Below, piece after piece: positions 11,500 through 30,702 of a DNA stretch of 32,000 nt. The stretch is from Candidatus Jettenia sp. (GTDB taxonomy: Bacteria > Planctomycetota > Brocadiia > Brocadiales > Brocadiaceae). A program made the position numbers and the translations under genes. The notes beneath the pieces are model-generated. The model had not been told where the DNA came from. It made no database searches and worked only from the letters and a program-made list of their open reading frames with translations. Within the stretch, counting starts at the first letter, position 1, and each line of letters begins with the position of its first letter. Location: the NCBI GenBank assembly GCA_021650895.1, contig CP091278.1:431659-463658 (forward strand). Reading direction: 5' to 3'.

Positions 11500-11502
11500 G
11501 AA

Positions 11503-12741
11503 TTATCTTTTGTATTTAGAGATAATGAGGGAAGAGTTATTGCCTAATCGTGAGAAGGAATTTATGAGAATGTTCTTGGCTGGTAAAGTACTTTTCTGGG
11601 TCACATAACTTAGGTCACAATTCTCGTCTCGTTCCTTATAATTAATGGTAGGTGGAATTATGTGGGTGTTAACAGACATGACTGCAGCTACTGTTTGCAA
11701 TGCACCCGAAGCATCAAAACACTCGCCTGTCATAGATTTAATGGCTGTTACAGGGAGAAGATTTGCCCGCATACCAAAAACTTCTTTAATAACCTGGGTT
11801 TCCATCGCATCGCCGTATACCCCAGAATAAGCATTAGCAGATATGTAGGAGATGTCGTGGAGCGTGAGACCGGCATCCTGAATGGCGTTTATAACAGCTC
11901 TTCTGTTACCATCTATTTGATAATCCTTACTTATAGCCATTTTCGGCTCGAATGCTGTCCCATAACCTTTGACTTCTGCATAAATGTGTGCGTTCCTTTT
12001 CAGTGCATTTTCCAGAGTCTCAAGGACGACCAGGGCTGATGCTTCACCAATAACCATTCCGTTGCGTCTCTTATCAAAAGGTGCACAAATTTCCAGGGTT
12101 CCATAGGTGCTTCCCGATAATATTTTAGAATTATGCGACCCCCAAAATATATCATGAGTCAATCCATGTACACCACCTGCTAATACAGCTTTAACACGGC
12201 CCATACGGAGGAAATCAGAGGCATAGATGACCGCATCGATACTGCTGGTAACACCATTTGAAATGGTTGTATTCAGCCCGGTTGCCTTACAGAAAATCGA
12301 TGCCCGGCTTGCTGGTGCATTTAATACCGTATTAGGAAAGTCCATAGGGTTAACATAATTCGGACCTTCACGCAATGACTGGAAATCAAAAGAGCTAATG
12401 CTGTCTATGCTGCCATAGGTAGATCCCACAACAATACCCAGCTCTTCTTCGTTGTATGTAGTATTTTCAAGATTGGCATCTTTGATGGCAAGAACCGCTG
12501 CGGATGATACAAGAAGGGATGTACGGTCAATGTGGCGAATTCCCTTTTGTCCAAGGTAAACTTTTGCATCAAAATCAGAAATTTCTCCCGCTTGCTTGCT
12601 ATTAAAGTTACTTACATCAAATAAGGTGATAGGCTTTATGCCTGATACACCGTTGGTTAAATTTTCCCAGAAAACATCTTTACCTGTTCCAATAGGCGAG
12701 AGAACCGAAACACCCGTAATAACAATCCTCGTTTTTTCCAT
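11503..12741 (-). CDS. Beta-ketoacyl synthase-like protein lacking the Cys-His-His triad (KS-beta / chain-length-factor-like partner), ~412 aa
   Basis: Thiolase-fold KS homolog that aligns along its whole length with the adjacent FabF-like protein. Its catalytic positions read Val165 (NTTISNGVTSS), Asn (YISANAYSG) and Glu (KSMTGECFDASG). The ATG at 12741 shares one base with the upstream TGA (TGATG); an alternative TTG at 12744 gives a 4-nt overlap. Confidence 0.85.
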   Translation of the reverse strand: MEKTRIVITGVSVLSPIGTGKDVFWENLTNGVSGIKPITLFDVSNFNSKQAGEISDFDAKVYLGQKGIRHIDRTSLLVSSAAVLAIKDANLENTTYNEEELGIVVGSTYGSIDSISSFDFQSLREGPNYVNPMDFPNTVLNAPASRASIFCKATGLNTTISNGVTSSIDAVIYASDFLRMGRVKAVLAGGVHGLTHDIFWGSHNSKILSGSTYGTLEICAPFDKRRNGMVIGEASALVVLETLENALKRNAHIYAEVKGYGTAFEPKMAISKDYQIDGNRRAVINAIQDAGLTLHDISYISANAYSGVYGDAMETQVIKEVFGMRANLLPVTAIKSMTGECFDASGALQTVAAVMSVNTHIIPPTINYKERDENCDLSYVTQKSTLPAKNILINSFSRLGNNSSLIISKYKR

Positions 12742-13967
12742 CAAGAGCCTCTTTTAAATTTTTTCACAACTAAACAGCTGTTGTTACCACCAAATGCATG
12801 AGCATTATTAAGCGCAATGTTTACTTCCTGTTTTCTTGCAACGTTAGGAACATAATCCAGGTCGCATTCCGGATCGGGGGTCTCATAATTAATCGTAGGG
12901 GGGATAATATCATTTTGAACAACTAAAGCGCAAGTAATTGCCTCAATTGCGCTTGCAGCTCCCATGGTATGTCCTATCATTGATTTTATTGAACTGATAG
13001 CGAGATGTTTTGGTTTATCCCCAAACACCTTTTTGATTGAAATCGTTTCTGCTTTATCGTTTGCGGGTGTGCCTGTTCCGTGAGCACTGATGTACTGAAC
13101 ATCTTCAGGTCTTAAATCTGCATTTTTTAATGCCTTTTTCATTGCAGAGACGACACCTTCCCCGTCTGGATGGGGGATGGTTATATGATATGCATCGCAA
13201 CTGAGTCCATAACCGGTTATTTCCGCATAAATAGGGGCATTCCTCTGTAATGCATGATCAAGTGATTCTAGAAGGAGCATACCAGCTCCCTCACCAACCA
13301 TCATGCCTTTTCTGTTTTTATCAAAAGGCTGACATATTTCCGGAGCAATAGCGCCTAGTCGTGCAAATCCCGTATATGCAACCTTCGAAAAAGGGTCTGA
13401 ACCACCAGCGATCATCATGTCCACCCTTCCGAATTGAATTAAATCGTATGCATATCCGATTGCATAATTGCCGGCTGCACAGGCGGTGGGAATAATAGTA
13501 TTGGGACCTTTGAATCCAAATTCGATGGCAATATTGGCAGGGATATTATTACATGGATGCATTAAAAACAGATCGGGAGCAACTTTGTCTTCGCCATCTC
13601 TATGCCTTATATAATTGACTTTTTCCAGGATTTGTATTTCTCCCGCAGTCGTACCTACAGAAACACCTATCCTTTCCAGATTAATCGCATTCAAATCGAG
13701 CTGGGCGTCATTTAAGGCCAGCTTTGCGGCTGCAATTCCGAATTGTGAACCTTTACCAATTTTTTTAAGAACACCGTTCTTTATATAGTTTGAATAATCG
13801 AAGTTCTTAACTTCACATCCTTTATGGACTTTGTATTCAGAGGTATCAATACATGATACCTTATCGACACCTGATACCCCGGCAATGAGGGAATTCCAGA
13901 AAACATCCTTTCCTGAACCGATAGGGGTAATCATTCCTACGCCTGTTATAACTACGCGTTTATTCAT
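12741..13967 (-). CDS. fabF: Beta-ketoacyl-ACP synthase II-type condensing enzyme (active KS), 408 aa
   Basis: Complete catalytic set: PTACAAG (Cys), DAYHIT, SAHGTGT (His), [14 protein letters not shown] (Lys/His), C-terminal FGGNNS. Confidence 0.9.
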
Positions 13968-13974
13968 AATTTAT

Positions 13975-14427
13975 TTATAGTAATGCACTTTTTTCAGCAA
14001 TTCCAAAAGTTAAAGTAGCCTTAGCAACTGCTTTTTCATCAACTTTTACCGTTGCCTGAATAATAGCTCCTTTCGATACGATCTTTTCTACATTGATTTC
14101 TATAAGGAGTTGATCGCCAGGGAAGACGGGTTTTGTAAATCTTGCATTGCCAATTGATGCCAGTAAAAAAACCGTATCCTTACCGCTTTGTATAGGAGGA
14201 AGGCTTTTCCTGAATAGGATAATAGAAGCCTGTGCCATTGCCTCGATAATTAAAACGCCAGGCATAATAGCAAAGTCAGGGAAATGTCCGACAAAAACTG
14301 GCTCATTGCCAGAAACATTTTTTACACAAATAATTTTTTTCCCTTCTTCAAACTCAATAACTTTATCAATAAATATAAAAGGATATTTTTGAGGGAGAAG
14401 GGATCTGATTTCCTCAAAAGATATCAT
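13975..14427 (-). CDS. fabZ: 3-hydroxyacyl-ACP dehydratase FabZ, ~150 aa
   Basis: LLPQKYPFIFIDKV...FVGHFPDFAIMPGVLIIEAMAQAS is the canonical FabZ signature. Start is ambiguous: the track ORF begins at a TTG (14436), and I prefer the ATG at 14427. Confidence 0.9.
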   Translation of the reverse strand: MISFEEIRSLLPQKYPFIFIDKVIEFEEGKKIICVKNVSGNEPVFVGHFPDFAIMPGVLIIEAMAQASIILFRKSLPPIQSGKDTVFLLASIGNARFTKPVFPGDQLLIEINVEKIVSKGAIIQATVKVDEKAVAKATLTFGIAEKSALL

Positions 14428-14503
14428 ACTGTACAAATCTTCTCTTCTTGCATCATTGCCTAATTGTCCTGTAAATTATCATACTCTGTGTGTCAGATGT
14501 ATT

Positions 14504-14773
14504 TTAAGATGAAAGTTTTCCGCTTTCAGCTAAGACAGATTTTGTTAAATCAATCGTAGCTGCCAGCGATGTAATATCAACAAGCTTTTCTTCCGGAATT
14601 TGCACCTTAAATTTCTTTTCAATAAGAGCAAGAATTTCAAGGGCTAAAAGAGAGTCAATTTCAAGATCTTTAAAGAAATTTGCATCTCTTTTAGCCCAAA
14701 TTTCTTTTTCATCCAGCTCTGTAACCTCAGCCACAATAGCGGTTACACCTTTTTCAATCTCTTCTGCGTTCAA
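14504..14773 (-). CDS. Cluster-dedicated acyl carrier protein, 89 aa (track ORF is over-extended at the 5' end)
   Basis: Phosphopantetheine site LEIDSLLALE (DSL). TTG start at 14773 with AAGGAG 7 nt upstream (14786..14781). The 21 extra N-terminal codons of the track ORF lie in what looks like the 5' UTR. Confidence 0.85.
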   Translation of the reverse strand: MNAEEIEKGVTAIVAEVTELDEKEIWAKRDANFFKDLEIDSLLALEILALIEKKFKVQIPEEKLVDITSLAATIDLTKSVLAESGKLSS

Positions 14774-14850
14774 AATTATTCTCCTTATTAATAATCTGCC
14801 TAACAAACGACATAGCATCCACTCAGCATAATCCAAAAATAAGAAAGACC

Positions 14851-15146: not shown

Positions 15147-15758
15147 TTATTTGCTTTTTCTTGAAGCCATTCTCTCCTGTTTTGATTCCTGTTTCTTCAG
15201 TTTGCTCAGTTTGCCTAATGCACGGTATATTTGTCTTTCCAACATAGTCTCGTACTCAGACAGATCTTTCAGTTTGGTTTTATCCTCAGCTATTTTCAAT
15301 GCTTTTAACTGTTTCAACTCAACATTTGTCCTCTTTCTTGTCCTGAAAAATCCTTGCTCGTACTCCTGAATACAAGAAGCGGCGTAGTCCATTATCTGAC
15401 CTTCAATCTTCAGACATCGCTTCAGTCGCCACATACTCGAAATAATACGATCTGCAATAATCGATTCAATCTCATTTGATGGTTTTAATTCTCGTGTAAG
15501 GCGATTTCTTAACTCGTCAAGATCAGCTTCGTTTTCGCCATCTATTAATATTTCTTTACTAAAGATAGACTCTGTTATACTTTTGCTTTCCTTAGATTTC
15601 AACGGGTCTGAAGATGTTTTGGTCTTAACTTCCGTATCTTTCCCGTGTATTGTTTTCGATTGATCAACTATCGTATTCATTATCTTATCGATCTTTTCTT
15701 TATTAACATTATCCGGATGCTTTTCACGTAAAACGTCGTCTTTTAGAATTGTTGACAT
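15147..15758 (-). CDS. Hypothetical lysine/glutamate-rich, probably coiled-coil protein, 203 aa
   Basis: Intact ORF with AAAGGAAAAAG upstream of the ATG. No motif I recognise. The C-terminal half (RIISSMWRLKRCLKIEGQIMDY...LKQLKALKIAEDKTKLKDLSEYETMLERQIYRALGKLSKLKK) looks helical. Bracketed by repeat copies A and B. Confidence 0.5.
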   Translation of the reverse strand: MSTILKDDVLREKHPDNVNKEKIDKIMNTIVDQSKTIHGKDTEVKTKTSSDPLKSKESKSITESIFSKEILIDGENEADLDELRNRLTRELKPSNEIESIIADRIISSMWRLKRCLKIEGQIMDYAASCIQEYEQGFFRTRKRTNVELKQLKALKIAEDKTKLKDLSEYETMLERQIYRALGKLSKLKKQESKQERMASRKSK

Positions 15759-16106: not shown

Positions 16107-16742
16107 ATGAAAATTAATGAAATATTTAAGAGTATTCAGGGGGAGACCTCTTATGCTGGTTTGCCGTGTACCTTCATACGGATAACAGGTTGTAACTTGC
16201 GCTGTCGTTATTGCGATACTACCTATGCCTATGAAGATGGAGTAGAAATGTCAATGAATTCGATTCTTGAAAGTATTCATGACTTTTCATCAAATTTGGT
16301 TTGTATAACGGGTGGCGAGCCTTTATCAAATGAAGATACACCGCTATTGATTCAAAGGCTGCTCGATAAAAATTATACGGTACTGGTAGAAACAAATGGC
16401 AGTTATGATATTCGTATGATACCGGAGAAAGCTGTAAAGATTATGGATATAAAGTGTCCTGGTAGTACTATGAGTCATACAATGCATTGGCAAAATATCG
16501 CCTATTTAACACAATCAGACGAGGTAAAATTTGTTTTAGCTTCCAGAGACGATTACGACTGGACGAAGGATGTGATACAGAAATATAATTTATCAGGAAT
16601 TGCGAAGGTATTGTTAGGAACAGTTTTTAATACAATCTCTCCACAATCCGTTGTACAATGGATTTTAGAAGACAATCTCAAGGTGAGATTTCAACTGCAG
16701 CTCCACAAGTATATATGGGAACCACACACGAGGGGTGTTTGA
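16107..16742 (+). CDS. queE: 7-carboxy-7-deazaguanine synthase (radical SAM, queuosine pathway)
   Basis: MKINEIFKSIQGETSYAGLPCTFIRITGCNLRCRYCDT is the QueE N-terminal signature with its CxxxCxxC variant. 211 aa. Confidence 0.9.
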   Translation: MKINEIFKSIQGETSYAGLPCTFIRITGCNLRCRYCDTTYAYEDGVEMSMNSILESIHDFSSNLVCITGGEPLSNEDTPLLIQRLLDKNYTVLVETNGSYDIRMIPEKAVKIMDIKCPGSTMSHTMHWQNIAYLTQSDEVKFVLASRDDYDWTKDVIQKYNLSGIAKVLLGTVFNTISPQSVVQWILEDNLKVRFQLQLHKYIWEPHTRGV

Positions 16743-16747
16743 TAGTT

Positions 16748-17419
16748 ATGAAAGATTTAGCAATTGTGCTCGTCAGCGGAGGTATGGACAGCTGCGTAAC
16801 ATCAGCTATTGCAAATACGCAGTACGAGCTTGCATTCTTACACGTTAATTATGGTCAGCGCACCGAAACAAGAGAGTTGAAGGCATTTCGCGAAATTGCG
16901 TTATACTATCGTATACCTGACGAGAGAATCCTCATCTCAGATGTTGATTATCTCAGGAAGATTGGAGGTTCAAGTTTAACCGACCCTCGCATGAACATTC
17001 AGGAGGTACAGTTACATAATAAAGAAATCCCGACTTCTTATGTTCCTTTTAGAAATACTATTTTTTTAACGATTGCTGTTTCCTGGGGGGAAATAATTGG
17101 GGCACGAAAGATATTTATTGGTGCTGTAGAGCAAGATAGCCCCGGTTATCCTGACTGTAAGCCGGTATATTATGAGATATTTAATAAGCTGATTAAGGCA
17201 GGAACAAAGCCAACAACGTTTCTTGAGGTAGAAACACCACTCATAGGGAAGAGTAAATCTGAAATTGTTACCATGGGTCTTTCTTTGATGGCGCCTCTTC
17301 ATCTCAGTTGGTCTTGTTACAAGAATACCGATAAAGCATGTGGGTTATGCCATAGTTGTTTCCTGCGCCTAAAAGCCTTTAAAGAAGCACATGCGGTAGA
17401 TCAAATTCCCTATGTTTGA
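16748..17419 (+). CDS. queC: 7-cyano-7-deazaguanine (preQ0) synthase
   Basis: True start is MKDLAIVLVSGGMDSCV (SGGxDS PP-loop) at 16748, 5 nt after the queE stop. C-terminal zinc cysteines CYKNTDKACGLCHSC. The track ORF start at 16658 is an upstream over-extension inside queE. Confidence 0.9.
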   Translation: MKDLAIVLVSGGMDSCVTSAIANTQYELAFLHVNYGQRTETRELKAFREIALYYRIPDERILISDVDYLRKIGGSSLTDPRMNIQEVQLHNKEIPTSYVPFRNTIFLTIAVSWGEIIGARKIFIGAVEQDSPGYPDCKPVYYEIFNKLIKAGTKPTTFLEVETPLIGKSKSEIVTMGLSLMAPLHLSWSCYKNTDKACGLCHSCFLRLKAFKEAHAVDQIPYV

Positions 17420-17495: not shown

Positions 17496-18140
17496 TTATT
17501 TTTTACTTCCAAAAATATAATCTGCATCTTTTGGTGTGAGTCCCCGATATAAATCGCGAACAAACTCCTGTGCCAAAGTGAGCGCATCCTCCAGAGTATC
17601 TTCCGTGCTGGGAATAGCAAGCCGTATCATGAAGCCCACCCTGTTTTTATTAAATAATGAAAAATATAACTCTTTTATTTTCTGTTTAGTCCAATCTACA
17701 ATGCCTTTATCAATACAAATCCAATAGATTAACAAAAAGCCTTCGGTATTTTTTTGAGCATAGAGGGCATGGGTTTTTAATGTACGACCTGCCAGATGAA
17801 ATTCCTGATCATAGAGCTCTCTTACTTTAAAGCCAGCTCCATGAGAGCAGATCTTTGGGTTATGAAAATTACCTGCATTCAGGATAGAGAAAAACAAATT
17901 TTTATCATGTGCATTTACATACCTGCGTTCGAGAATCTGACTGATAAAATTATATTTTTTATCTTCTAAATTCCATTCATCTCTTATATCAATACCTTGC
18001 CAACTATTCATGGTATAGGGGATTTCCAGGCGAGAAAAAACCTCCGAACTTGTATACTTAGTCCTGGGAAATAAAAAACAATAAACGAGAGCAAATGAAA
18101 TCCATGCCAAAGCTATGTAGGGCTTAAGATGTTCATGCAT
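17496..18140 (-). CDS. epsI: EpsI-family exosortase-associated protein, 214 aa
   Basis: N-terminal TM helix, then W-G, RRY, HNPKICSHGAGF, LIYWICI and GFMIRLAIPS blocks in the order typical of EpsI (DUF3485) proteins. Sits in an exosortase gene neighbourhood. The start overlaps the upstream gene by 28 nt. Confidence 0.7.
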   Translation of the reverse strand: MHEHLKPYIALAWISFALVYCFLFPRTKYTSSEVFSRLEIPYTMNSWQGIDIRDEWNLEDKKYNFISQILERRYVNAHDKNLFFSILNAGNFHNPKICSHGAGFKVRELYDQEFHLAGRTLKTHALYAQKNTEGFLLIYWICIDKGIVDWTKQKIKELYFSLFNKNRVGFMIRLAIPSTEDTLEDALTLAQEFVRDLYRGLTPKDADYIFGSKK

Positions 18141-19636
18141 TTTTGTCTATCGATTCGTGATTGTTCTTTAAGGTTCAGAAGTCCGTCAAACTGAAACCGT
18201 GTATCTATTTTGCTTCGTAATTCCTCTTCATCCAGTGCAAAATGAGGACTAATCTCTATAAGACCAATAACATTGCCCTGAGGATCCATGGGAATAGATA
18301 TACCGGCATTACGTAACCATCTCCCGAATAAATTAACTATATCCCGTTTTGCTGTAGCTGGCGAATCATCGCCTTCTGAATTTTTTACCGGTGAGAATTC
18401 TTCTTCCCGAAGAACCTCCATAACTACCCCCTGCTTTACATATCTGAGTATATCAAAGATAAAGCTCTCAAATTTAACAGCATTATTCTTATCAGGATTT
18501 ACCATATCTCCTTTCTCATTCAGACAGGACACTTTTTTGAAGGCTACATGGTACGGAAGAGAATTTTCCATTCGGTATACTTTTTCGAGAAAGTCAATAT
18601 GGATCATATGCACCCCAATACTTCCTGCATTATATTTCAGCATACCATTCCCATTTCTAGCATGCATATCCTCCTGGCTGAGTTCACTATATTCAGCAAT
18701 ATGGAGATGCCCGTCGATATATCCTACAATGCCTACCTTTTCTTCCGCATGGCGTTTTTTAACAACCTTTAACGATATCTCTGCTTTACTTCCTGTATGG
18801 TAACCAAGAAAAACCGGATCGGCCATCTTTATGAGCACGTTATCAATCTGATGATAAAAGATCTGTCTGACACCACGCCTCCTCATATCGGCAAGAATAC
18901 CCTTCTCCCTCAAAGCAATAATAACTCCTCCATGACCATTGGGACTCATAACAATATTTGACTTTGAATTCATCAACACCTTCCCTTGCAGGTCTACTAC
19001 AGGAAGCATACCTTGGGTAAAAAAGCATACCTGTCTGGCATCTAATCCAAAGAAGTGGTGTGATTGAAAAAAATCCTGCGTTGCCTGATTATTGGTCTCG
19101 CTGGTCATGATATACCAGGGAACTGGTATACCATATCGCTGCTGAAGGGCATGGATCTTTTCTGCATGAAGCTGAAAGATGCTTTTCCCACTGATCGGTG
19201 CAATGTGAATCATCCCTTTTGGTCCATTGCCTCCCAGTCTGGATCCATCTCCACCTGCGACGGTAAGGATGGCAGTCTCTCCTTTCCGGAGAGATGACTC
19301 CCCTAGCTGTTTTGCCGCCTCTGCAAGCTCCCTTTCAAGGGTATTCGATGGGACAGAGATAACGTGAGGAGGGAGTAAACTACCCTGAATGGCGGATGCT
19401 GTTTTCTGGAGATTCTGATGAAAGAGTTTCTCGATGAGCTGAAAATCTATTGAGGCGATCTGTGCCAGGAGAAGTTCTTTTTCCCCGGGCGATATTTCAT
19501 CCCACCATTTGAAGACGTGCTGCTGCTTTGCCTCAAAGGTGTTTTTGATGTGCTTCTTATAGTTTGGATACTCTTTTTCTAGTATTTTTCTATTCAATCT
19601 TAGTTTGTAAGGTGTAAGTTTTTTCTGAAAAGACAT
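18113..19636 (-). CDS. UDPGP type 1 family UDP-sugar (UDP-GlcNAc/UDP-hexose) pyrophosphorylase, eukaryote-like UAP/USP type, 507 aa
   Basis: Nucleotide-binding loop LTVAGGDGSRLGGNGPKGM, size and downstream blocks (YIMTS, PNGHGG) resemble UAP1/UDPGP enzymes. The ATG at 19636 overlaps the exosortase 3' end by 37 nt; an in-frame TTG at 19597 (2 nt after that stop) is an alternative start. Confidence 0.7.
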   Translation of the reverse strand: MSFQKKLTPYKLRLNRKILEKEYPNYKKHIKNTFEAKQQHVFKWWDEISPGEKELLLAQIASIDFQLIEKLFHQNLQKTASAIQGSLLPPHVISVPSNTLERELAEAAKQLGESSLRKGETAILTVAGGDGSRLGGNGPKGMIHIAPISGKSIFQLHAEKIHALQQRYGIPVPWYIMTSETNNQATQDFFQSHHFFGLDARQVCFFTQGMLPVVDLQGKVLMNSKSNIVMSPNGHGGVIIALREKGILADMRRRGVRQIFYHQIDNVLIKMADPVFLGYHTGSKAEISLKVVKKRHAEEKVGIVGYIDGHLHIAEYSELSQEDMHARNGNGMLKYNAGSIGVHMIHIDFLEKVYRMENSLPYHVAFKKVSCLNEKGDMVNPDKNNAVKFESFIFDILRYVKQGVVMEVLREEEFSPVKNSEGDDSPATAKRDIVNLFGRWLRNAGISIPMDPQGNVIGLIEISPHFALDEEELRSKIDTRFQFDGLLNLKEQSRIDRQKCMNILSPT

Positions 19637-20424
19637 TCTAGGCCAATTAATCCTGATAGAATAATCATAAAGATAACAATTCCACTAAAATTATGAAAAA
19701 ATCCTTGTCCTGCCGCTTCACCAAAATAATAGGTTATGATACATAATGTTATTACGCGGATAAGATTCCCAAATAATGAAAGAGGAATAATAAAAGAGAC
19801 TAGCAAAGTTTTTTTGGGTAAACTTGCTTTGCTGAGATATACATAAACCAAAGCCAATGAGAACATAGTAATAAGGGAACGAAAACCACTGCAAGGCTGA
19901 CCCATAAACAGCTCATTACTGCCAATGGATAATAAAAGCCCTTCTCTGGTAATGGGGTAATCAAAAAGTCTTAAGATTACCTCGGTAGCAATAGTAATTC
20001 CGTAACGCATAGGTAAGGTAATGCTATCCACAATGCCGAGAGGAAGAGGAACAATAAGGATAAGATAGAAAATGGGAAAAGATAATATTCTTGTTATGCT
20101 CAATCCGTAAAGATAGCGGATTAACCCGTATAATACAGGAAGTAGTGAAAGTGTTGTAATGAATATATAATTTTGGTGCTTCCCAAAAATAAACATGAGG
20201 ATACCCATTAAAAAAATGAAAAGACCAAAAAAATTATTATCAGGTTTAATCTTTTTAAGATGTTCCCTCAGGCTTGTATGTTTACGCCACACAAGCCAAA
20301 AGAATATTGGCAGAATAAAGTAAGCATGGGTATAATCGGAAGCCATCCACTTTGATCGGTACAGTACATAGATAACGGTGGCATACAGAGATGCTGTTAG
20401 TATCCAAACAAGATAATGAACCAT
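19600..20424 (-). CDS. Exosortase (polytopic membrane transpeptidase of the PEP-CTERM system), 274 aa
   Basis: Multi-pass membrane protein with the three hallmark blocks: QPCSGFRSL (Cys), FGNLIRVITL (Arg), FFHNFSG (His). Subfamily not assignable by eye. Confidence 0.85.
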   Translation of the reverse strand: MVHYLVWILTASLYATVIYVLYRSKWMASDYTHAYFILPIFFWLVWRKHTSLREHLKKIKPDNNFFGLFIFLMGILMFIFGKHQNYIFITTLSLLPVLYGLIRYLYGLSITRILSFPIFYLILIVPLPLGIVDSITLPMRYGITIATEVILRLFDYPITREGLLLSIGSNELFMGQPCSGFRSLITMFSLALVYVYLSKASLPKKTLLVSFIIPLSLFGNLIRVITLCIITYYFGEAAGQGFFHNFSGIVIFMIILSGLIGLECLFRKNLHLTN

Positions 20425-20495
20425 AGGAAACGTATATCCGAATCAGGGTATTTAGAGGATTATATAAGCATAAGATTTTGGGTTTTTATTGTTTT

Positions 20496-20551
20496 GTTTG
20501 TAGTGGCAATTTCCATATCGGAGAAGGCAATATAAAATTACCACTACAAAC
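20496..20551 (-). other. Intercistronic stem-loop between the PEP-CTERM mini-gene and the exosortase gene
   Basis: GTTTGTAGTGG (20496..20506) pairs perfectly with CCACTACAAAC (20541..20551). After a 1x1 mismatch, 5 more A-T pairs follow (20508..20512 with 20535..20539), leaving a 22-nt loop. No U-tract follows on the minus strand. Confidence 0.55.
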
Positions 20552-20564
20552 TAGGAGCGGTTTG

Positions 20565-20783
20565 TTAAGATTGCTTATCTAAATTCTTTGAACCTTTCTT
20601 AGCCCTCCATCGGCGAAAAACTGCCAGAGTAGCTCCCCCTGCCAAAAGGAGTAAATAACTCAATGGTTCCGGAGCATTCGGAGGCACTCCATCGGTAGCA
20701 CCATGACCTGCAAAAATATTACTACTCAATAGTACACCATGTAATAAAAGTATTGAAAACCATACCATTACATTTTTTTTCAT
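20565..20783 (-). CDS. Minimal PEP-CTERM protein, 72 aa (signal peptide + ~12-residue linker + PEP-CTERM sorting signal)
   Basis: MKKNVMVWFSILLLHGVLLSSNIFA|GHGATDGVPPNA|PEPLSYLLLLAGGATLAVFRRWRAKK GSKNLDKQS. PEP is encoded at 20672..20664, followed by a TM helix and an Arg-rich cluster. GGAGG lies 8 nt upstream of the ATG. Confidence 0.8.
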   Translation of the reverse strand: MKKNVMVWFSILLLHGVLLSSNIFAGHGATDGVPPNAPEPLSYLLLLAGGATLAVFRRWRAKKGSKNLDKQS

Positions 20784-21201
20784 ATTTTATTCCTCCAAAA
20801 TCTTAAATCTGTAAGAGTCTTTCCTGCAAAATCTTTAGCGCTCATGCTTATTGTCCGCTACACCTGGAGAAACTGTGTACTCACAATATGAATAATCAAC
20901 TTTACCTAAGTACGATGTTGTCTATTTGTGTCCTGTGTTTCATCGAAAAACCAAACAACTTCTCACTTCCGCTCCTTTCTGAATTAATACGGAAAGCACG
21001 TTATAGAACATTTCTGGAGACAGACTTAAAAATATTTTTCATATCATTGTTTGTCTGCAAAAAATTGACACATATCCAACCTTCAACTATCAAAAAATAT
21101 ACCATAGATAAAAAAATAGTTTTATTGTATTTCTGACTATGAAAATAGAGGTTTTCCGGGAAGAAAAGTGATAAAAAATCATAAAACTAAGGCCCATAAC
21201 G

Positions 21202-21249
21202 CTGTAACTGTCACAATAGTGTGTTGTCACACTATTGTGACAGTTACAG
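21202..21249. repeat. Perfect 22-bp-arm palindrome with 4-nt centre (CTGTAACTGTCACAATAGTGTG-ttgt-CACACTATTGTGACAGTTACAG)
   Basis: All 22 pairs checked base by base (c21202-g21249 through g21223-c21228). It sits in a ~1-kb AT-rich stretch with no convincing genes. Confidence 0.9.
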
Positions 21250-21484
21250 TATGTGATATCAGAGAAAACATAACACGGAAAGGCTCATTGTACGAAAGTT
21301 TATGTATTTATCATAAAGCAAGCAGTTATTCGCATACCGTCAGTATTCTGAAGAGGGAAGTCAAAAAATTATTGAATATTTATTGGAATATTGACAGGTA
21401 AAGGCATGGCTTGTGCGCAATATCGGGGGTAGAAACAAATATGATCAGAAATCTTACAGAAATAACGAAAGGCAGATATATAAT

Positions 21485-21676
21485 ATGGAGAATAAAAAAG
21501 AAAAAATATCCTTATTTAATGAATTTTCAAACCTTGAAGAGGCTGAAAATAAGATAAATAAATGGATTGAAGAAGATTACAATCAACAGGGTATCTACCC
21601 TGCTTTTCAATATAAGGATTATGAAAATAAGGATTACGAGAAGTTTGAAAAAGCCAATTATAAAAGCTTAATTTGA
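21485..21676 (+). CDS. Possible 63-aa acidic small protein (MENKKEKISLFNEFSNLEEAENKINKWIEEDYNQQGIYPAFQYKDYENKDYEKFEKANYKSLI)
   Basis: Internal ATG of the 87-aa track ORF with only a weak GAAAGG upstream. It is the only plus-strand ORF here without repeat-derived sequence. Low-complexity composition; may be spurious. Confidence 0.2.
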   Translation: MENKKEKISLFNEFSNLEEAENKINKWIEEDYNQQGIYPAFQYKDYENKDYEKFEKANYKSLI

Positions 21677-21822: not shown

Positions 21823-23022
21823 TTAAATAGCAAATAACAGTTTAGGATTTAAACCTAATGAATTTAGCTGTTGTTGGATTTCCTGCTTATAGAGAGGATT
21901 CATAATAATGACATTATCAGGTATATGATTTTTTAATTCTTCTGGTAAGATTATTTTTTGACCGGTTCCTGGCATATAGCATCCTTTCTTCCGAGGATTA
22001 ATATCAACAACATAGGTAATTTGATCCTTAATATTTAGTATATTTAAAAAGCTCACACTTTTGCTTCCTGCGCCCCATATAACCGTACTTTCATTATTTT
22101 GCTCAATGTGCTGCAGGGTGTTTTCCCACTCTTCTAATTTTATCCTGCATTTATAAGAAAAATCGCGGACGAGGGTTAGCAATTCTTTTATCTTATTCGA
22201 ATTCCTTGCTAATGATTTTCCAACATCTCTTGCAGGAGTTGCTTCAATACCTATAAATTGATTCCCAAAACTCTCAAATAGCTTAACCGTATCAAATTTT
22301 GAGAGATTAAATACCCTCTCAAGCGAAGTCGCTCCAAAGTAGGAACAGTGCTCATAAATTATATCCCATACTGAAAGCTCTTTGAGAATGAGTAATATGT
22401 TGGGGACTTCAAAATATAAAATGGGATTGTCTTGTCCATCGATAGTTGAACGTAGTGCGGTCAGAAATTCAAAAGGATTTGGAATATGCTCAAATACATG
22501 GCGACTACATATTAAATCTCCCTGATAATGAGAATAGTTCGCTGAATAATAATCTCTGATAAACGTTATTCGATCTGATGATTGTACAGGAGAAAGATTT
22601 CCCCGGTAGCTTGGGTCAAAACCCGTTCCGTAATTTTTTCCTATTTTACAGATTAAAGATAAAAAGTCACCTTTACCCGAACCGATTTCAATTATTTTTT
22701 TGTCATATAATTGGTAATCTTCTACAAGCCTTTTGGCGACTGATTCAGCATAATTTTGATAATATTTTGAGAAATGGAGAGAGTTATCATACTCTTCAGT
22801 ATATTCCATCAATGAAGAATCAAAGGCAATGTTGGAAATAAATCCACAATCGCTGCAACATGCCAGTTCTATATCTCCCCTGAGACAATTAAGAGCTTCT
22901 TCTTTACTTCTCCATAAAATACCAACATGAGCCGGAGCATAAGGTATTGTATAAAAAGTTGAAAATTGCGATGATAAACAAACAGGACATTTAGTTACCC
23001 TTTGTTCAGACTGTAGTGACAT
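21823..23022 (-). CDS. Zinc-ribbon + class I SAM-dependent methyltransferase with C-terminal Methyltransf_14-like domain (NDP-sugar C-methyltransferase family), paralog 1, ~399 aa
   Basis: CPVC...CSDCGF zinc ribbon, SAM motif IIEIGSGKGDFL, WDIIYEHCSYF block, C-terminal VIWGAGSKS...VVDINPRKKGCYMPGTGQKI. Start moved to the ATG at 23022 (MSLQSEQ) because the 29 upstream codons of the track ORF are translated repeat copy D. Confidence 0.75.
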   Translation of the reverse strand: MSLQSEQRVTKCPVCLSSQFSTFYTIPYAPAHVGILWRSKEEALNCLRGDIELACCSDCGFISNIAFDSSLMEYTEEYDNSLHFSKYYQNYAESVAKRLVEDYQLYDKKIIEIGSGKGDFLSLICKIGKNYGTGFDPSYRGNLSPVQSSDRITFIRDYYSANYSHYQGDLICSRHVFEHIPNPFEFLTALRSTIDGQDNPILYFEVPNILLILKELSVWDIIYEHCSYFGATSLERVFNLSKFDTVKLFESFGNQFIGIEATPARDVGKSLARNSNKIKELLTLVRDFSYKCRIKLEEWENTLQHIEQNNESTVIWGAGSKSVSFLNILNIKDQITYVVDINPRKKGCYMPGTGQKIILPEELKNHIPDNVIIMNPLYKQEIQQQLNSLGLNPKLLFAI

Positions 23023-23076
23023 TGAGAAGCAATTCCTTTCGTATGATAGATATAAATTGTATAGGAATTTCAATTC

Positions 23077-23128
23077 TGTAGGGCAAACCTTTAGGTTTGC
23101 GGAATACAAGGCTAAAGGTTTGCCCTAC
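23077..23128 (+). repeat. REP-like structured repeat, copy D
   Basis: TGTAGGGCAAACCtttaGGTTTGCggaatacaaggctaaaGGTTTGCCCTAC. The left arm (23078..23089) can pair with either the proximal GGTTTGC (23094..23100) or the distal GGTTTGCCCTAC (23117..23128). Confidence 0.75.
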
Positions 23129-23183
23129 TTCGGACACCGTTTTTTTATGAGGGAAGACAGAGACCGTAAGATTTTACATCTCT

Positions 23184-23244
23184 TTGGGTTGCTATCCTGG
23201 CGCATGTATTCTGGTGGGTCGGCAAGGCTAAAGCCTTGCCCTAC
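23184..23244 (+). repeat. REP-like structured repeat, copy E (5'-truncated, perfect module 2)
   Basis: ttGGGTTGCTATCCtggcgcatgtattctggtgggtcGGCAAGGCTAAAGCCTTGCCCTAC. Like copy D it is followed by a CACCGTTTTTT tail, so D and E form a tandem pair. Confidence 0.75.
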
Positions 23245-23287
23245 TTTCAGCACCGTTTTTTCTGATTTGAAGGTTATATACATGTCA

Positions 23288-24058
23288 TTAGCTCCAAATC
23301 TTCCATGGGGCGTTACCATTTTGCCAAAGATCTTCTAATAATCGCTTATCGCGTAACGTATCCATACATTGCCAAAAGGATACATGGCGGTATGCCGCCA
23401 GTTGTCCATCTCTCTCCAATGATTCCATAGGTTTTCTCTCCCATTGCGTAGTATCGCCATCGATGTAGTTAAGTACTTCAGGTTCCAGAACAAAGAAGCC
23501 GCCGTTTATCCATACCTCATTCTTCTCGGGTTTTTCAGAAAATTTTTTCACATAATCTCCTTCTAAATCAAGATAGCCAAAGCGTGCATTTGGCCGGACA
23601 GCAGTTAATGTGGCATACCTCTGATGAGTGTTATGAAACAGTAACAATTTACGCAAATCTACATTAGATACCCCATCTCCATAGGTTAGCATAAACGTTT
23701 CATTTCCTATATAAGGGGCAAGTCGCTTGATACGACCGCCTGTAAGTGTTGAAATTCCCGTATCAACCAAATCAATTACCCAATCAGGTTTGCCAGTGCC
23801 ATGAGCTTTTACATCTCCATTTTTTAAATTTACAGTTAAATTACTGTTCAGCGAACAATAATCCACGATGTACTTTTTAATTACCTCGCCTTTATAACCA
23901 AGGGCAATGATAAAATGATTAAAACCATAATAAGAGTAATGCATCATAATATGCCAGAGGATTGGTTGACCTCCAATCTCTACCATCGGTTTTGGTTTTA
24001 TCTCTGTCTCTTCTGCGAGTCGGGTACCTAAACCTCCGGCAAGAATGACTACCTTCAT
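23288..24058 (-). CDS. rfbF: Glucose-1-phosphate cytidylyltransferase (CDP-glucose pyrophosphorylase), 256 aa
   Basis: MKVVILAGGLGTRLAEETEIKPKPMVEIGGQPILWHIM...INGGFFVLEP...FWQCMDTLRDK...APWKIW is the canonical RfbF signature from end to end. AAGGAA upstream of the ATG. Confidence 0.88.
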   Translation of the reverse strand: MKVVILAGGLGTRLAEETEIKPKPMVEIGGQPILWHIMMHYSYYGFNHFIIALGYKGEVIKKYIVDYCSLNSNLTVNLKNGDVKAHGTGKPDWVIDLVDTGISTLTGGRIKRLAPYIGNETFMLTYGDGVSNVDLRKLLLFHNTHQRYATLTAVRPNARFGYLDLEGDYVKKFSEKPEKNEVWINGGFFVLEPEVLNYIDGDTTQWERKPMESLERDGQLAAYRHVSFWQCMDTLRDKRLLEDLWQNGNAPWKIWS

Positions 24059-24167
24059 GTTTTTATTTCCTTAAAAATACAGATACCTAATAAGACTGAG
24101 ATCGAATGCTCAGTACATTCTGTTATATCTTTTATAGAAAGAGCAGAGATTCTCTATAATTTCCTTA

Positions 24168-24196
24168 TGTAGGGCGAGGCTTTAGCCTTGCCCTGC
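24168..24196. repeat. REP-like repeat, copy F (module 2 only)
   Basis: TGTAGGGCGAGGCTTTAGCCTTGCCCTGC, a near-perfect palindrome. Confidence 0.7.
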
Positions 24197-24267
24197 GTAG
24201 TTGAAATTTCTCAACGTTTAATTAGGTTGGGTCGTAAAAGGCAAAACCCAGTGACTGTTCTTTTTAT

Positions 24268-24413
24268 CCACCCCTTTTACCCACACCTCAATCCCCTCCC
24301 GAGAGGGGGACTTTTTTATTCCCCTCCTGGGAGGGGTTAGGGGTGGGTTCATTCCCCTGTAGAGACGCAAAATCTTGCGTTTCTACTTCTTTCGTAAAAT
24401 CTTGCATCTCTAC
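24268..24413. repeat. Cluster of other short palindromic repeat classes (C/G-tract hairpins and GTAGAGACGCAA hairpin)
   Basis: CCCCTC-ccga-GAGGGG (24293..24308). CCCCTCC-tg-GGAGGGG followed by TTAGGGGTGGGT (24321..24347). GTAGAGACGCAAaatcTTGCGTtTCTAC (24359..24386) plus a half copy at 24393..24413. Confidence 0.65.
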
Positions 24414-24488
24414 AATGGAGATCAAAGATTGAATTTCCCTAACATCAAGGTAACATAGCTTTTGATAATTTTGATACTGGATCGCCGA

Positions 24489-25679
24489 TCATTCAGATTC
24501 TACCGTGATAAGCTCTGTAGCAAGACCTCTCCTCTGAAGATCGTGCTGTATTTCTTCACAGTAAATCGGATTCATTACAATAGCAATATCTGGTTTATAT
24601 TCTTGTAAAAAAACTGGGCCTACGATTTTATGTCCTGTCCCTGGCATATACATTCCATGTTTATATGGATTTATATCTACGACGAACTCAATTTCATCAG
24701 TAATATTGAGAGAAGTTAAAAACGTAACACCTTTAGATCCTGACCCCCATATAACAGCGCGTTTCCCGCTTTGCTTTATCTCCTTGAATTTATATCTCCA
24801 CCTGTCTAACTGTTTCCGATAATTTTGAGAAAAGTATAGCACGTCTTTTGATAGCTCTTCAAAATCATCTTCATCCCTGAAAAGAGTTCCATTCGTTCCG
24901 TTGCCGGGTCGGGCCTCTATCATTAAATATTGATCATTATAGTCCCTGGTAAGATTGATAACATCAAAACCACACATACGGAAGAGACGGGCGAGTGATC
25001 CCCGGCTGAAATAGGAGCAGTGCTCATAATAAATATCCCAAAACCCCAGACCTCGAAGGATAGGAATGACATCGGGGACCTGAAAAAAAACTACAGTATC
25101 TTGTTGATTCTCCAATGAACGCCGAACAGTTCGTACGAAATCGGCAGTAAGATGAATATGTTCCAAAGTCATCTTACAACAAATGAAATCACCGTGGTAG
25201 TTGGCATATTTTTCCGAGTAGAAATCTCGTATAAAGGTGATCCGGTCTCTCACTTCACTTTGATTTCGTTCACTGATATAACTCGGATCAAATCCAATGC
25301 CTCGGTTTTTACCTAATTCGCAAAGCATGGTTAAAAATTCACCTTTCCCGCACCCTATTTCGATTATATCTTTATTATGGAGATTGTGCCGGCGTATCAA
25401 TTGATTTGCCAGGTTCCGATGAAACGTGTTGAATGTAGGCGAAAACCCCTGAGTCTCTTCATATCTGGACGAATACTCATGCATACGGGGATCAAATGCG
25501 ACATTAGAAATAAACCCGCAGTTTTGACAAAACCCCAGTGCAATATCTCCTTTAGGATAATTTACCGCTATTTCCCGGCTTGGCATAAGAAGAACACTAT
25601 GAACAGGAACATTCTTCATCTCACAAAATACTGATATATCGCGCTCACCGCACGTGTAACAAATGTAGTTTGCTGGCAT
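24489..25679 (-). CDS. Zinc-ribbon + class I SAM-dependent methyltransferase (NDP-sugar C-methyltransferase family), paralog 2, ~396 aa
   Basis: CYTC...CQNCGF, IIEIGCGKGEFL, WDIYYEHCSYF, VIWGSGSKG...VVDINPYKHGMYMPGTGHKI. Collinear with paralog 1. I prefer the ATG at 25679 (MPANYIC): AAGGAG lies 11 nt upstream and overlaps the GTG used by the track. Confidence 0.75.
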   Translation of the reverse strand: MPANYICYTCGERDISVFCEMKNVPVHSVLLMPSREIAVNYPKGDIALGFCQNCGFISNVAFDPRMHEYSSRYEETQGFSPTFNTFHRNLANQLIRRHNLHNKDIIEIGCGKGEFLTMLCELGKNRGIGFDPSYISERNQSEVRDRITFIRDFYSEKYANYHGDFICCKMTLEHIHLTADFVRTVRRSLENQQDTVVFFQVPDVIPILRGLGFWDIYYEHCSYFSRGSLARLFRMCGFDVINLTRDYNDQYLMIEARPGNGTNGTLFRDEDDFEELSKDVLYFSQNYRKQLDRWRYKFKEIKQSGKRAVIWGSGSKGVTFLTSLNITDEIEFVVDINPYKHGMYMPGTGHKIVGPVFLQEYKPDIAIVMNPIYCEEIQHDLQRRGLATELITVESE

Positions 25680-25760
25680 TGTTTGCTTCACTCCTTACTT
25701 ACGAACGCTTTTTAATTGATGTCTGTAGTAAAAAAAGACCATTTTTCTTCGCGGTTATCC

Positions 25761-26585
25761 TCACATGCAGTACCGGTAAAAAATTTCCCGAGGTTGAAAA
25801 AAGCAATTCAGAAATTTTCCCTGTGATACATCATTGAGTGTAGGCCATTTCTTATCGGGAATAAGCCTTGTCATCTGTGATTTATATTCATGTAACGCAG
25901 CCCGCTTTACCTCTAAAGTGTCTCCTATATCAACAGAAGACCTAAAGTCTAAGAGTAAATGCAAATTTGCAAAAGGAATACTTCTTAATGTCCTGATGGT
26001 TTTAAGACGAAGACTCATCGGTACGGTGACCCATGGCCAATGATTCCAGAACCAGATGGGATACTCATATATCATAGTCTCCTTCTTGATCTTTCGAAGC
26101 GCTGCTGCCACAATTTTATTCGTTGCCCAATGGTCCGGAGGAGTTTCCCGGTAGTAAGGAATGAAGACCTTATCGGGCTTATGGTGAAGGAGGATATCTA
26201 TTACTTTGTCAGTCGCTATCGTCCGGTTTTCCCATAACTTTTTATCATCAAATTCAAGAAAGGTAACATTATCCTGCCCTACTCCCAGCATACGGGTTGC
26301 CTCAATCGCTTCTCTTCTCCGTATAGACTTTAATACGCTCTCTGAAATAAACTGCCGATGCGATTGAGATCCGTCAGTCATGAAAACAATATGCACATCT
26401 GCTCCTGCCCTTTTTTTCCTGATAATAGTGCCGCCGCAGCCCAACGTTTCATCGTCAGGATGCGGTGAGAAGACAACGGCAGGGCGTTTCAGCTCATGTT
26501 CATCCTGTTCAATCATAACGCTGTTCATAACATGTCTGTATAAACTGTGTATCAGTGATTTTGAGGATGTTTTACGCATGTTCAT
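25761..26585 (-). CDS. PIG-L/LmbE-family N-acetylglucosaminyl deacetylase, ~274 aa
   Basis: VVFSPHPDDETLGCGGTI and HIVFMTDGSQSH motifs. The probable start MNMRK (ATG 26585 or 26579) overlaps the GT4 gene's 3' end by 14 or 8 nt. The track ORF start at 26666 is probably an over-extension. Confidence 0.75.
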   Translation of the reverse strand: MNMRKTSSKSLIHSLYRHVMNSVMIEQDEHELKRPAVVFSPHPDDETLGCGGTIIRKKRAGADVHIVFMTDGSQSHRQFISESVLKSIRRREAIEATRMLGVGQDNVTFLEFDDKKLWENRTIATDKVIDILLHHKPDKVFIPYYRETPPDHWATNKIVAAALRKIKKETMIYEYPIWFWNHWPWVTVPMSLRLKTIRTLRSIPFANLHLLLDFRSSVDIGDTLEVKRAALHEYKSQMTRLIPDKKWPTLNDVSQGKFLNCFFQPREIFYRYCM

Positions 26586-27816
26586 CGATATTCTTATATT
26601 GGCACAATAATTTTTCAGAAATACGGTCCCAGGAGAAGAGTTCAACCGCTCGTTTACGCGCAGCACTTCCCATTGATTTTCTCATCTCTTCATTTGCCAG
26701 GAGGCGGAGAATGGCTGCAGCTAATGCAGGTGCGTCTCCAGGTTCAACTAATATACCTGTTTTATCTTCTTCTATAACTTCTGTCATACCACCAACCCGT
26801 GTTGCAACTACCGGCACCTCCGTAGCCATAGCCTCAACAAGGCTCATCCCAAAGCTCTCACTAAACGAAGGATTGACGAGCACATCCGCATTACGATAAT
26901 TGTTATGTAAATACGCTTGCTGAATATGGCCGGAAAAGGTTACCTTGCTTGCTATATCTGGACAAAGCATGGCCTTCAATTGTGAGAGATAATTTTTGTC
27001 ATAAAACCATTTTAAATTGGCCACTTTATTGTTATTGTGCAAATCAACAATAAATGACCGGGGAGTCTGGTCATGGGGGCCGACAATCTCCATCCGCACC
27101 TGCGGGCATTGTTTTACGAGTATTTGAAATGCCTCTAATAAAGTATGTAATCCTTTTTCCGGTGTTATTCTTCCAACAAACAGTAAGTGTTTCGCATCGT
27201 TATTTTTCTTCCCCGAGTCCTCCTCCGGGGCAAAGTGTTCAATATCTACGCCGTTATAAATAGTCTGACAACGGTGGGCGTATTCAGGAAAATGTCTGCG
27301 TATCTTTTCTGTGATATATTCACTGCATCCTACAATCAGGTCCGTCCGATCAAGCCTCTGTTTGATCATTGAACGGTCAAGCTCCACAAGCCAATCACAA
27401 TGCATATGCAGGATAATCTTTACTCCTGGATTGTAAGCCCGTATGACAGGAATAAATTGGGAAAAATTATGGACGTGAACAATGTCACATTTCTGTTTTC
27501 TGATATCTCTTGCCACTTTTATAACATACCCTAAATAATAGGTACGGGAGGCAAAAAGAGGACGTTTAACCGTATAGAATTGTGAAAAACGTTTTAAATA
27601 CCTGAGAAATCTATTTTCAAAAGATGTTGAAATGCGCCGATAGTATACCCCCCCGTCGAGTTCTTTTTTTTTCTGTAATTTACTGCTGTTCGCATAGACG
27701 ACAACATCACACGCCTTACTCAAACGGCGTGCGACTTCGTTAATCCAAATTGATATAGAGCCACCTTTAACAGGTGGACATTGATTCCACGGTTGACTGA
27801 CAAAGGCAATTTTCAT
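26572..27816 (-). CDS. GT4-family (GT-B fold) glycosyltransferase, 414 aa
   Basis: C-terminal retaining-GT signature NPSFSESFGMSLVEAMATEVPVVATRVGGMTEVIEEDKTGILVEPGD. AAGGAG lies 5 nt upstream of the ATG. Confidence 0.85.
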   Translation of the reverse strand: MKIAFVSQPWNQCPPVKGGSISIWINEVARRLSKACDVVVYANSSKLQKKKELDGGVYYRRISTSFENRFLRYLKRFSQFYTVKRPLFASRTYYLGYVIKVARDIRKQKCDIVHVHNFSQFIPVIRAYNPGVKIILHMHCDWLVELDRSMIKQRLDRTDLIVGCSEYITEKIRRHFPEYAHRCQTIYNGVDIEHFAPEEDSGKKNNDAKHLLFVGRITPEKGLHTLLEAFQILVKQCPQVRMEIVGPHDQTPRSFIVDLHNNNKVANLKWFYDKNYLSQLKAMLCPDIASKVTFSGHIQQAYLHNNYRNADVLVNPSFSESFGMSLVEAMATEVPVVATRVGGMTEVIEEDKTGILVEPGDAPALAAAILRLLANEEMRKSMGSAARKRAVELFSWDRISEKLLCQYKNIDEHA

Positions 27817-27883
27817 CTTTTCTCCTTTGTTTCCTCCTTATTTTTATACGAACATCTCTGAAATACTCTGGATCTTTCCACCA

Positions 27884-28762: not shown

Positions 28763-28827
28763 ACTGAGTCTCCTGTATTCCCCATAAGAATACCACTTAT
28801 GGAATTGTGTGAAGGTATACTAGTTAT

Positions 28828-30660: not shown

Positions 30661-30702
30661 TATTCTTTACCGTTTCCACATTTTCGCTTAGTGCATATGA
30701 GA

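Follow-up and report, generated by a model that had tools for sequence, protein, structure and literature searches.

We analyzed a 32-kb stretch of DNA from Candidatus Jettenia, an anammox planctomycete of the Brocadiales (hereafter, the window), the minus strand of which carries genes encoding a mini PEP-CTERM precursor (20565-20783; 72 aa), an exosortase (xrt; 19600-20424; 274 aa), a UAP1/AGX-type UDP-N-acetylhexosamine (UDP-HexNAc) pyrophosphorylase (UAP; 18113-19636; 507 aa by the longest open reading frame, ORF), and EpsI (epsI, DUF3485; 17496-18140; 214 aa, with an N-terminal transmembrane (TM) anchor). The conserved unit at this locus is likely to consist of the mini-precursor, the exosortase, and EpsI, with the pyrophosphorylase gene being a secondary, duplicate insertion that stands outside the unit and probably serves the adjacent glycan cluster. 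A first-pass annotation of the window had described all four genes as one compact exosortase module, and had taken the pyrophosphorylase as a hint that the acceptor of the sorted peptide derives from a UDP-sugar. The four genes are present as it described, their domain identities were upheld by hidden Markov model (HMM) scans, and the idea of a compact exosortase module holds, with the tiny PEP-CTERM gene beside xrt being a feature kept across the loci of anammox Brocadiaceae. The pyrophosphorylase, however, is probably not an integral part of that module: it is a lineage-limited duplicate of a housekeeping gene, is absent from the xrt loci of relatives, and is kept at a Loosdrechtia locus from which the peptide gene, xrt, and epsI are missing. 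The suggestion of a UDP-sugar-derived acceptor is therefore unsupported, and the presence of UAP in the module, a genus-level accident of gene order involving a duplicated housekeeping gene, offers no guide to exosortase chemistry. Judged by ratios of nonsynonymous to synonymous substitution (dN/dS) of 0-0.37 among three Jettenia genomes, purifying selection acts on all four genes.

The peptide, exosortase, and EpsI unit

Gene order was compared across 75 xrt loci taken from one scan of species-representative genomes, whose six-frame ORFs were searched with the four window proteins. In about 64 of the 75, which come from four phyla and include loci of Brocadia, Nitrospirota, Omnitrophota, and other Planctomycetota, xrt is either followed immediately by epsI or fused to it. 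The fusion ORFs, of ~560-600 aa, were found in three planctomycete loci (L009, 9908-11590; L025, 5934-7739; L030, 4651-6204), each of which has a mini PEP-CTERM gene upstream. A UAP homolog within 10 kb of xrt was found in none of these 75 related loci, an absence that the first-pass annotation had itself named as counting against its reading. The order xrt-UAP-epsI occurs only in Jettenia, where it was seen in strain CY-1 (L076) and in J. caeni (L085). Brocadia loci L005-L008 are otherwise colinear with the window, running from the mini-peptide gene, xrt, and epsI through a gene for a 203-aa hypothetical protein to genes for ACP, FabZ, two ketosynthases, an amine-oxidase-like protein, and a B12 radical-SAM protein. 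The H5_AMX3 locus (L061) matches the Brocadia gene order beginning with xrt, and has queC/queE next to epsI on its far side.

The exosortase matched its family models well above their cut-offs (PF09721, 189 bits, E = 1e-55, cut-off 25.7; TIGR02602, 144 bits, cut-off 105.6). Classified against the Xrt subfamily HMMs, it reached the cut-off of no named subfamily, scoring 193.7 against 313 for XrtV (NF035943), 185.4 against 275 for XrtB (TIGR03113), and 149.2 against 208 for XrtA (TIGR03109). By these models the window exosortase is a member of the EpsH-type, eight-TM family, within an unnamed subfamily. Its residues Cys178, Arg223, and His244 are invariant in 26 homologs; the view of such Cys/Arg/His residues as a catalytic triad rests on published work with ArtA, as cited in 10.1101/2023.06.07.544157. 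The enzyme is 95% identical to its counterpart in Jettenia sp. CY-1, and homologs at 50-72% identity are numerous in Brocadia, Nitrospirota/Thermodesulfovibrionia, Omnitrophota, and other Planctomycetota.

The first-pass annotation had also raised the prospect of a general-purpose, XrtA-type enzyme. The XrtA assignment fails at the NCBIfam cut-off, but a one-to-many arrangement does hold for relatives in Omnitrophota and other Planctomycetota, where exosortases 50-60% identical to that of the window have as many as six full-size PEP-CTERM proteins encoded around them. Because these relatives sit in multi-PEP-CTERM arrays, the exosortase family is not intrinsically one-to-one. The Nitrospirota xrt loci have no PEP-CTERM protein within 4 kb, and a conserved small ORF upstream of xrt, sought in Nitrospirota and Omnitrophota, was found in neither.

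EpsI was recognized by both of its general models (PF11984, 56.7 bits, E = 3e-15, cut-off 26.1; TIGR02914, 44.6 bits, cut-off 42.8), and fell far below the cut-offs of the B-type (56 vs 220) and V-type (40 vs 228) models. A profile search with EpsI against PDB sequences gave no match, and a fold model built from its single sequence reached a pLDDT of just 46.

The system is of an already known kind, the PEP-CTERM/exosortase (EpsH) system with EpsI defined by Haft et al. (2006; PMC1569441), with which it shares the exosortase fold family, the Cys/Arg/His residues, a separate or fused EpsI, the tripartite signal, and an adjacent polysaccharide locus. It differs from the named XrtA, XrtB, and XrtV systems in that neither its exosortase nor its EpsI reaches the cut-off of any named type. 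Regulators of the PrsK/PrsR type, known from PEP-CTERM/exosortase systems, were not seen in the window. What is unusual here is (i) a family of very small adjacent substrates, found only in anammox Brocadiaceae, and (ii) the Jettenia-specific insertion of a duplicated housekeeping gene.

Duplication and gene conversion of the pyrophosphorylase

The 507-aa protein matched the UDPGP family HMM (PF01704; 158.8 bits, E = 2e-46), and among solved structures it comes closest to the eukaryotic UDP-GlcNAc pyrophosphorylases (1vm8, E = 3e-90 over residues 33-453; AGX1, 1jv1, E = 8e-89). As this match is near full-length, the protein is predicted to be a UAP1/AGX-type UDP-HexNAc pyrophosphorylase. In keeping with its homology to UAP1/AGX1, it has the GGxGxRLG nucleotide-binding loop (as AGGDGSRLG) and the Phe-x-Phe and Lys motifs; it differs in being a bacterial duplicate with an 18-aa C-terminal tail and a Ser for AGX1 Asn327.

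By longest ORF, UAP overlaps xrt by 37 nt (19600-19636) and epsI by 28 nt (18113-18140), and both overlaps had been read in the first-pass annotation as implying obligate co-expression. The 28-nt overlap stands, and arises from the loss of a stop codon: the ancestral TAA became AAA, which added 18 codons that extend into epsI. The 37-nt overlap, together with 13 extra N-terminal codons, is probably an artifact of ORF calling, because all UAP orthologs, and the ancestral paralog as well, begin at a position that aligns with a TTG at 19597-19595, which lies 2 nt beyond the stop codon of xrt. This TTG is probably the true UAP start, in which case xrt and UAP abut without overlapping.

UAP orthologs of 475-493 aa follow the anammox phylogeny, with 64-69% identity in Brocadia and its relatives, about 60% in Kuenenia, and about 52% in Scalindua. 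The housekeeping gene adjoins pgi in Loosdrechtia and Scalindua, and follows hslVU in Kuenenia. Jettenia genomes hold, by cluster membership, both a 476-aa and a 507-aa UAP (GAB61923.1/GAB63290.1, UJS16746.1/UJS17819.1, and WKZ17192.1/WKZ14972.1, respectively). The window protein matches UJS17819.1 at 100% identity and the 476-aa paralog UJS16746.1 at 93.9%; the paralog is assigned to a contig of equal length (3,822,769 bp), which we take to represent one and the same genome. In J. caeni, the 476-aa gene lies among genes for FtsH, an ADP-forming acetyl-CoA synthetase, and AsmA, a setting that matches Loosdrechtia and represents the ancestral context. Judged by sequence, the window UAP is a second, locus-specific copy of the anammox housekeeping gene.

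The two copies were compared at window 18113-19597 (minus strand), L087 6001-7431, and L085 5040-6524. In J. caeni they share 96.9% DNA identity over 1428 nt, beginning 4 nt before the TTG and fading in the last ~25 nt, and are 100% identical over nt 120-840 and 1080-1380. Between these identical tracts, of >700 and >300 nt, lies a divergent patch of ~240 nt (~nt 840-1080) with only 72-87% identity. The proteins of two species form a corresponding mosaic: 13 positions are species-specific and common to both paralogs, and 17 are paralog-specific in both species, 15 of the latter falling within residues 314-366. This mosaic points to an older duplication, homogenized by gene conversion everywhere outside one patch, and makes the UAP pair a clean, small case of concerted evolution with a single protected patch. 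Within the patch lies the position of AGX1 Asn327, a residue described as touching the N-acetyl arm of the sugar (PMC7038226); the locus copy has Ser here, whereas the housekeeping copy has Asn. Ser is also found at this position in five of 13 other anammox UAP sequences compared, and we regard it as a clue to follow rather than as evidence of altered sugar specificity.

The duplication also accounts for a recurrent break in Jettenia assemblies at the xrt/UAP junction. Four Logan contigs (L077-L080) end 28 nt beyond the xrt stop, and a J. ecosi contig (L001) ends exactly at it; the ends of these five independent short-read contigs correspond to window 19572-19600, the point at which the duplicated UAP sequence starts. 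Likewise, many of the UAP entries for Jettenia in databases are fragments of 57-135 aa at contig ends. Five short-read contigs ending at this junction, and >700-nt tracts of complete identity between the copies, are what one would expect if the xrt-UAP-epsI order were itself an assembly artifact, but we consider that explanation extremely improbable. The arrangement is contained in the 3.76-Mb CP129468.1 and in a 124-kb contig, and the 507-aa UAP is also found on contigs of 3.82 and 3.97 Mb; moreover, the locus copy is marked by junction sequences and a patch private to it, and by an 18-aa extension that it has in common with Loosdrechtia.

Upstream of the four genes, Pfam assignments delimit a Wzx-dependent glycan cluster (21823-31615, minus strand) encoding two C-methyltransferases, an RfbF-like nucleotidyltransferase, a PIG-L de-N-acetylase, a GT4 glycosyltransferase, a sulfotransferase, the flippase, and a further nucleotidyltransferase. 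PIG-L de-N-acetylases act on GlcNAc-containing substrates, and the cluster is likely, from its predicted gene content, to be a consumer of UDP-HexNAc. From wzx to the C-methyltransferase gene on the module side, this cluster and the UAP copy are syntenic in Loosdrechtia, at a locus that lacks xrt and epsI; the distal nucleotidyltransferase gene falls outside that Loosdrechtia locus.

The Loosdrechtia comparison is based on one assembly, that of Ca. Loosdrechtia aerotolerans, which has two UAP copies that are 98.9% identical, one by pgi (L081) and the other (L086) at the locus that corresponds to the window by synteny. L086 comprises, in order, flippase (Wzx), sulfotransferase, GT4, PIG-L, C-methyltransferase, RfbF-like protein, C-methyltransferase, ~700 nt of noncoding DNA with a small opposite-strand ORF, UAP, and queC/queE, with an ACP-FabZ-ketosynthase cluster further along. 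The mini-peptide gene, xrt, and epsI left no trace at this locus (SOER01000002.1, 7081-9543), even at E <= 10. DNA homology with the window spans UAP from start to stop, including a homologous 18-codon extension (KEQIVIDRQEHRDIFSPA in one, KEQSRIDRQKCMNILSPT in the other). The simplest history would be a single insertion of the UAP duplicate, exactly between xrt and epsI, in the common ancestor of Jettenia and Loosdrechtia, followed by its retention in both genera and the loss of the sorting genes from Loosdrechtia. Whatever the order of events, the Jettenia and Loosdrechtia loci indicate that the UAP duplicate functions without an exosortase and always accompanies the glycan cluster. Under the insertion model, the copy, which has lost its stop codon, would be co-transcribed with the operon, and gene conversion would have kept it close to identity with the housekeeping copy, save for the 53-aa patch at residues 314-366; its most likely role would be an extra or specialized supply of UDP-HexNAc for the adjacent glycan cluster, with no step in exosortase chemistry.

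Several points weigh against placing UAP outside the functional unit. At least three Jettenia species still carry the insertion within the operon, with its flanking genes intact, the locus copy retains its paralog-specific patch with the sugar-contact position of AGX1 Asn327, and the loss of xrt from Loosdrechtia is seen only at locus L086 of a single assembly. In addition, neither the cleavage site nor the acceptor is known for any exosortase (10.1101/2023.06.07.544157). Because the insertion and the private patch have both been retained, a specialized role for UAP, co-expressed with the exosortase, is possible.

The strongest version of such a role, in which the pyrophosphorylase belongs functionally to the module, makes a UDP-sugar for the peptide acceptor or its modification, and owes its position to selection for obligate co-expression, strikes us as quite improbable. 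It would fit the tight abutment of the genes, common to three Jettenia genomes, and the survival of a diverged 53-aa patch in the sugar-binding region while gene conversion acted on the rest of the gene; the PIG-L de-N-acetylase encoded in the neighboring cluster could free an amine on a sugar to act as nucleophile, and attachment of a peptide to a sugar amine has a precedent in the sortase of the type IX secretion system (PMC7468200). It is at odds, however, with the absence of UAP from all 75 related xrt loci and with the persistence of the duplicate in Loosdrechtia without the peptide gene, xrt, or epsI; nor do the probably artifactual 37-nt overlap and the recurrence of Ser at the Asn327 position in other anammox UAPs favor it. 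We give still less credence to the proposal that the mini-peptide is a dedicated substrate whose Gly/Pro-rich product of ~15 residues would be transpeptidated onto the free amine of a PIG-L-deacetylated sugar (GlcN/HexN) in the sulfated, methylated glycan of the adjacent cluster, with the diverged UAP paralog of Jettenia supplying the particular UDP-HexNAc needed. Were that proposal true, it would give the first identified exosortase acceptor.

The mini PEP-CTERM precursor

We return to the unit that we favor as the conserved one, and to its substrate. The 72-aa protein scored above the cut-offs of two PEP-CTERM HMMs (TIGR02595, 21.2 bits, cut-off 16; PF07589, 21.6, cut-off 20.7), and was the only ORF in the 32-kb window to match as a PEP-CTERM protein. 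Its layout, as read from the sequence, comprises a signal peptide with an AXA-type site (between ..NIFA and GHG), a Gly/Pro-rich mature part of 12-15 aa (GHGATDGVPPNA) followed by PEP, a TM helix (LSYLLLLAGGATLAVF), a basic cluster (RRWRAKK), and a 9-aa hydrophilic tail. Across the family, the mature part is about 13-22 aa and weakly conserved apart from Gly-rich...PPxxxPEP, and 9-25 hydrophilic residues follow the basic cluster, an ending longer than those of neighboring full-size PEP-CTERM proteins. A mature region of ~15 residues and a tail past the basic cluster distinguish this substrate from those of typical PEP-CTERM systems.

Twelve loci from anammox and related planctomycetes have a mini PEP-CTERM gene upstream of xrt, and homologs of 72-88 aa in this position come from Brocadia and other Brocadiaceae as well as from two related Planctomycetota of groundwater. 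When 5.8 billion proteins were searched by profile, just 36 mini-peptide clusters (48-86 aa) were returned, all of which, where they bore an organism name, were from Brocadiaceae, at one to three copies per genome. Some Brocadia genomes have two or three copies, including one with a tandem pair before xrt and a third elsewhere. In several Brocadia loci a single gene intervenes between the mini-peptide gene and xrt; at two of the Brocadia loci (L007, 6647-9770; L003, 5977-9686), this interval holds a gene for a secreted protein of 630-715 aa whose C-terminus is basic, and a gene for a ~200-aa secreted protein lies upstream of the mini-peptide gene. A search of the literature on PEP-CTERM in anammox bacteria found no relevant match.

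The mini-peptide gene is preceded by a Shine-Dalgarno sequence (GGAGGA ~7 nt before the ATG) in the window and in its Brocadia homologs, and a strong GGAGG ribosome-binding site was present in all copies examined. Its dN/dS among Jettenia genomes is 0-0.18. Between it and xrt is a stem-loop of ~24 bp (20496-20551, minus strand; minimum free energy -30.3 kcal/mol, z -4.5), with no T-run after it, which is kept in four Jettenia genomes. Hairpins with z <= -4 follow the mini-peptide gene in eight of 12 loci, with sequences that are unrelated between lineages. The strong ribosome-binding site, low dN/dS, and recurrent 3' hairpin together suggest that the mini-peptide gene is real and well expressed. 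The stem-loop is probably an attenuator or a transcript-stabilizing 3' hairpin, and would probably yield more peptide transcript than enzyme transcript.

By analogy with sortase, archaeosortase A (ArtA), and rhombosortase, the mini-precursor would be exported by the Sec pathway, and its leader removed by signal peptidase. The C-terminal helix would then anchor the Gly/Pro-rich remainder of ~15 residues in the cytoplasmic membrane, where the exosortase, through Cys178, Arg223, and His244, would cleave at PEP with EpsI as a membrane-anchored, periplasm-facing partner. The resulting peptide of 13-22 residues might be either transferred to some envelope acceptor or released. The mechanistic template here is provided by archaeosortase A/PGF-CTERM and rhombosortase/GlyGly-CTERM, in which a membrane-embedded enzyme removes the C-terminal helix and a lipid-type anchor is substituted (10.1101/2023.06.07.544157); the signal and the enzyme subfamily differ from those of exosortase, and rhombosortase belongs to an unrelated family.

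Dedicated C-terminal sorting systems pair one enzyme with one adjacent target (10.1101/2023.06.07.544157). The mini-peptide loci resemble them in that the target gene lies beside or near the gene for the sorting enzyme across Brocadiaceae, but differ in the two or three mini-peptide copies of some Brocadia and in the orthologous enzymes found elsewhere amid many full-size PEP-CTERM proteins.

An anchored substrate is not the only role that such a precursor might have. It could instead give rise to a released peptide of 13-22 aa (for example, a signal), or could itself act as a regulator of or placeholder for the exosortase, the cargo being encoded elsewhere. The mature mini-peptide is far smaller than a structural surface protein would have to be and shows little conservation outside its Gly-rich...PPxxxPEP portion, its strong ribosome-binding site and 3' hairpin are reminiscent of precursor-peptide genes, and the hydrophilic tail of 9-25 aa is atypical of PEP-CTERM. 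Further, H5_AMX3 (L061) has xrt-epsI, but a mini-peptide gene was not detected in the surrounding 20 kb. However, no nearby receptor or export partner for a released mini-peptide was found, and its low sequence conservation speaks against a specific ligand; on balance, we judge these alternatives unlikely, although the observations fit release and attachment of the peptide alike. A transposase/integrase-like ORF (9426-9857) is located directly upstream of xrt in L061, at the position expected for the mini-peptide gene.

In Brocadia, the unit of substrate, exosortase, and EpsI occupies <2 kb, and, because the mature peptide has just 13-22 residues, a Brocadia-type unit would be convenient for heterologous expression and mass spectrometry.

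Upstream DNA and neighboring genes

A 1-kb AT-rich gap precedes the mini-peptide gene. Within it, a 37-nt block (TGGTATATTTTTTGATAGTT; 21078-21114, minus strand) is 89% identical to Loosdrechtia L086 7781-7816 and stands in otherwise diverged intergenic DNA; every Jettenia locus has the block, and none of the Brocadia loci does. We propose this block as a candidate promoter or regulatory site for a mini-peptide-xrt transcript. A sigma-54-like promoter (TGG-N10-TTGA) that can be read in TGGTATATTTTTTGATAGTT was rejected as a general feature: it occurs in Jettenia and Loosdrechtia, with better matches in L005 and L006, and not in other Brocadia. The same gap contains, ~100 nt farther upstream of the 37-nt block, a perfect 21-bp inverted repeat rich in TGTGACA/TGTCACA (21203-21249, minus strand). 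A segment at 21474-21588 is 75% identical to Loosdrechtia and overlaps a small opposite-strand ORF of relatives (63 aa in L076; 67 aa in L086). An Rfam scan of the window gave no match, indicating that the upstream kilobase holds no known riboswitch, and hits in a scan for consensus sigma-70 promoters and terminators were at or below shuffled expectation.

On the other side of the module is a fatty-acid-synthase-like cluster (8579-14836, minus strand) encoding ACP, a FabZ-like dehydratase, two ketosynthases, an amine-oxidase/desaturase-like flavoprotein, and a B12-binding radical-SAM protein, which we take to match the gene set proposed for anammox ladderane lipid synthesis. This cluster is colinear in Brocadia, H5_AMX3, and Loosdrechtia. 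A functional link between it and the exosortase was considered and rejected, as the whole region, unrelated genes included, is colinear across Brocadiaceae, and as the lipid cluster persists at the Loosdrechtia locus, where xrt is missing. A conserved protein that matches no Pfam family (203 aa; window 15147-15758, minus strand) is encoded between epsI/queCE and the ACP gene in each Brocadiaceae locus examined.

Finally, queE/queC (16107-17419, plus strand) converge on epsI. The pair follows epsI or the UAP copy in Jettenia, H5_AMX3, and Loosdrechtia, and is not found there in Brocadia. By longest ORF, queE and queC overlap by 85 nt, which suggests that the queC start has been called too early.

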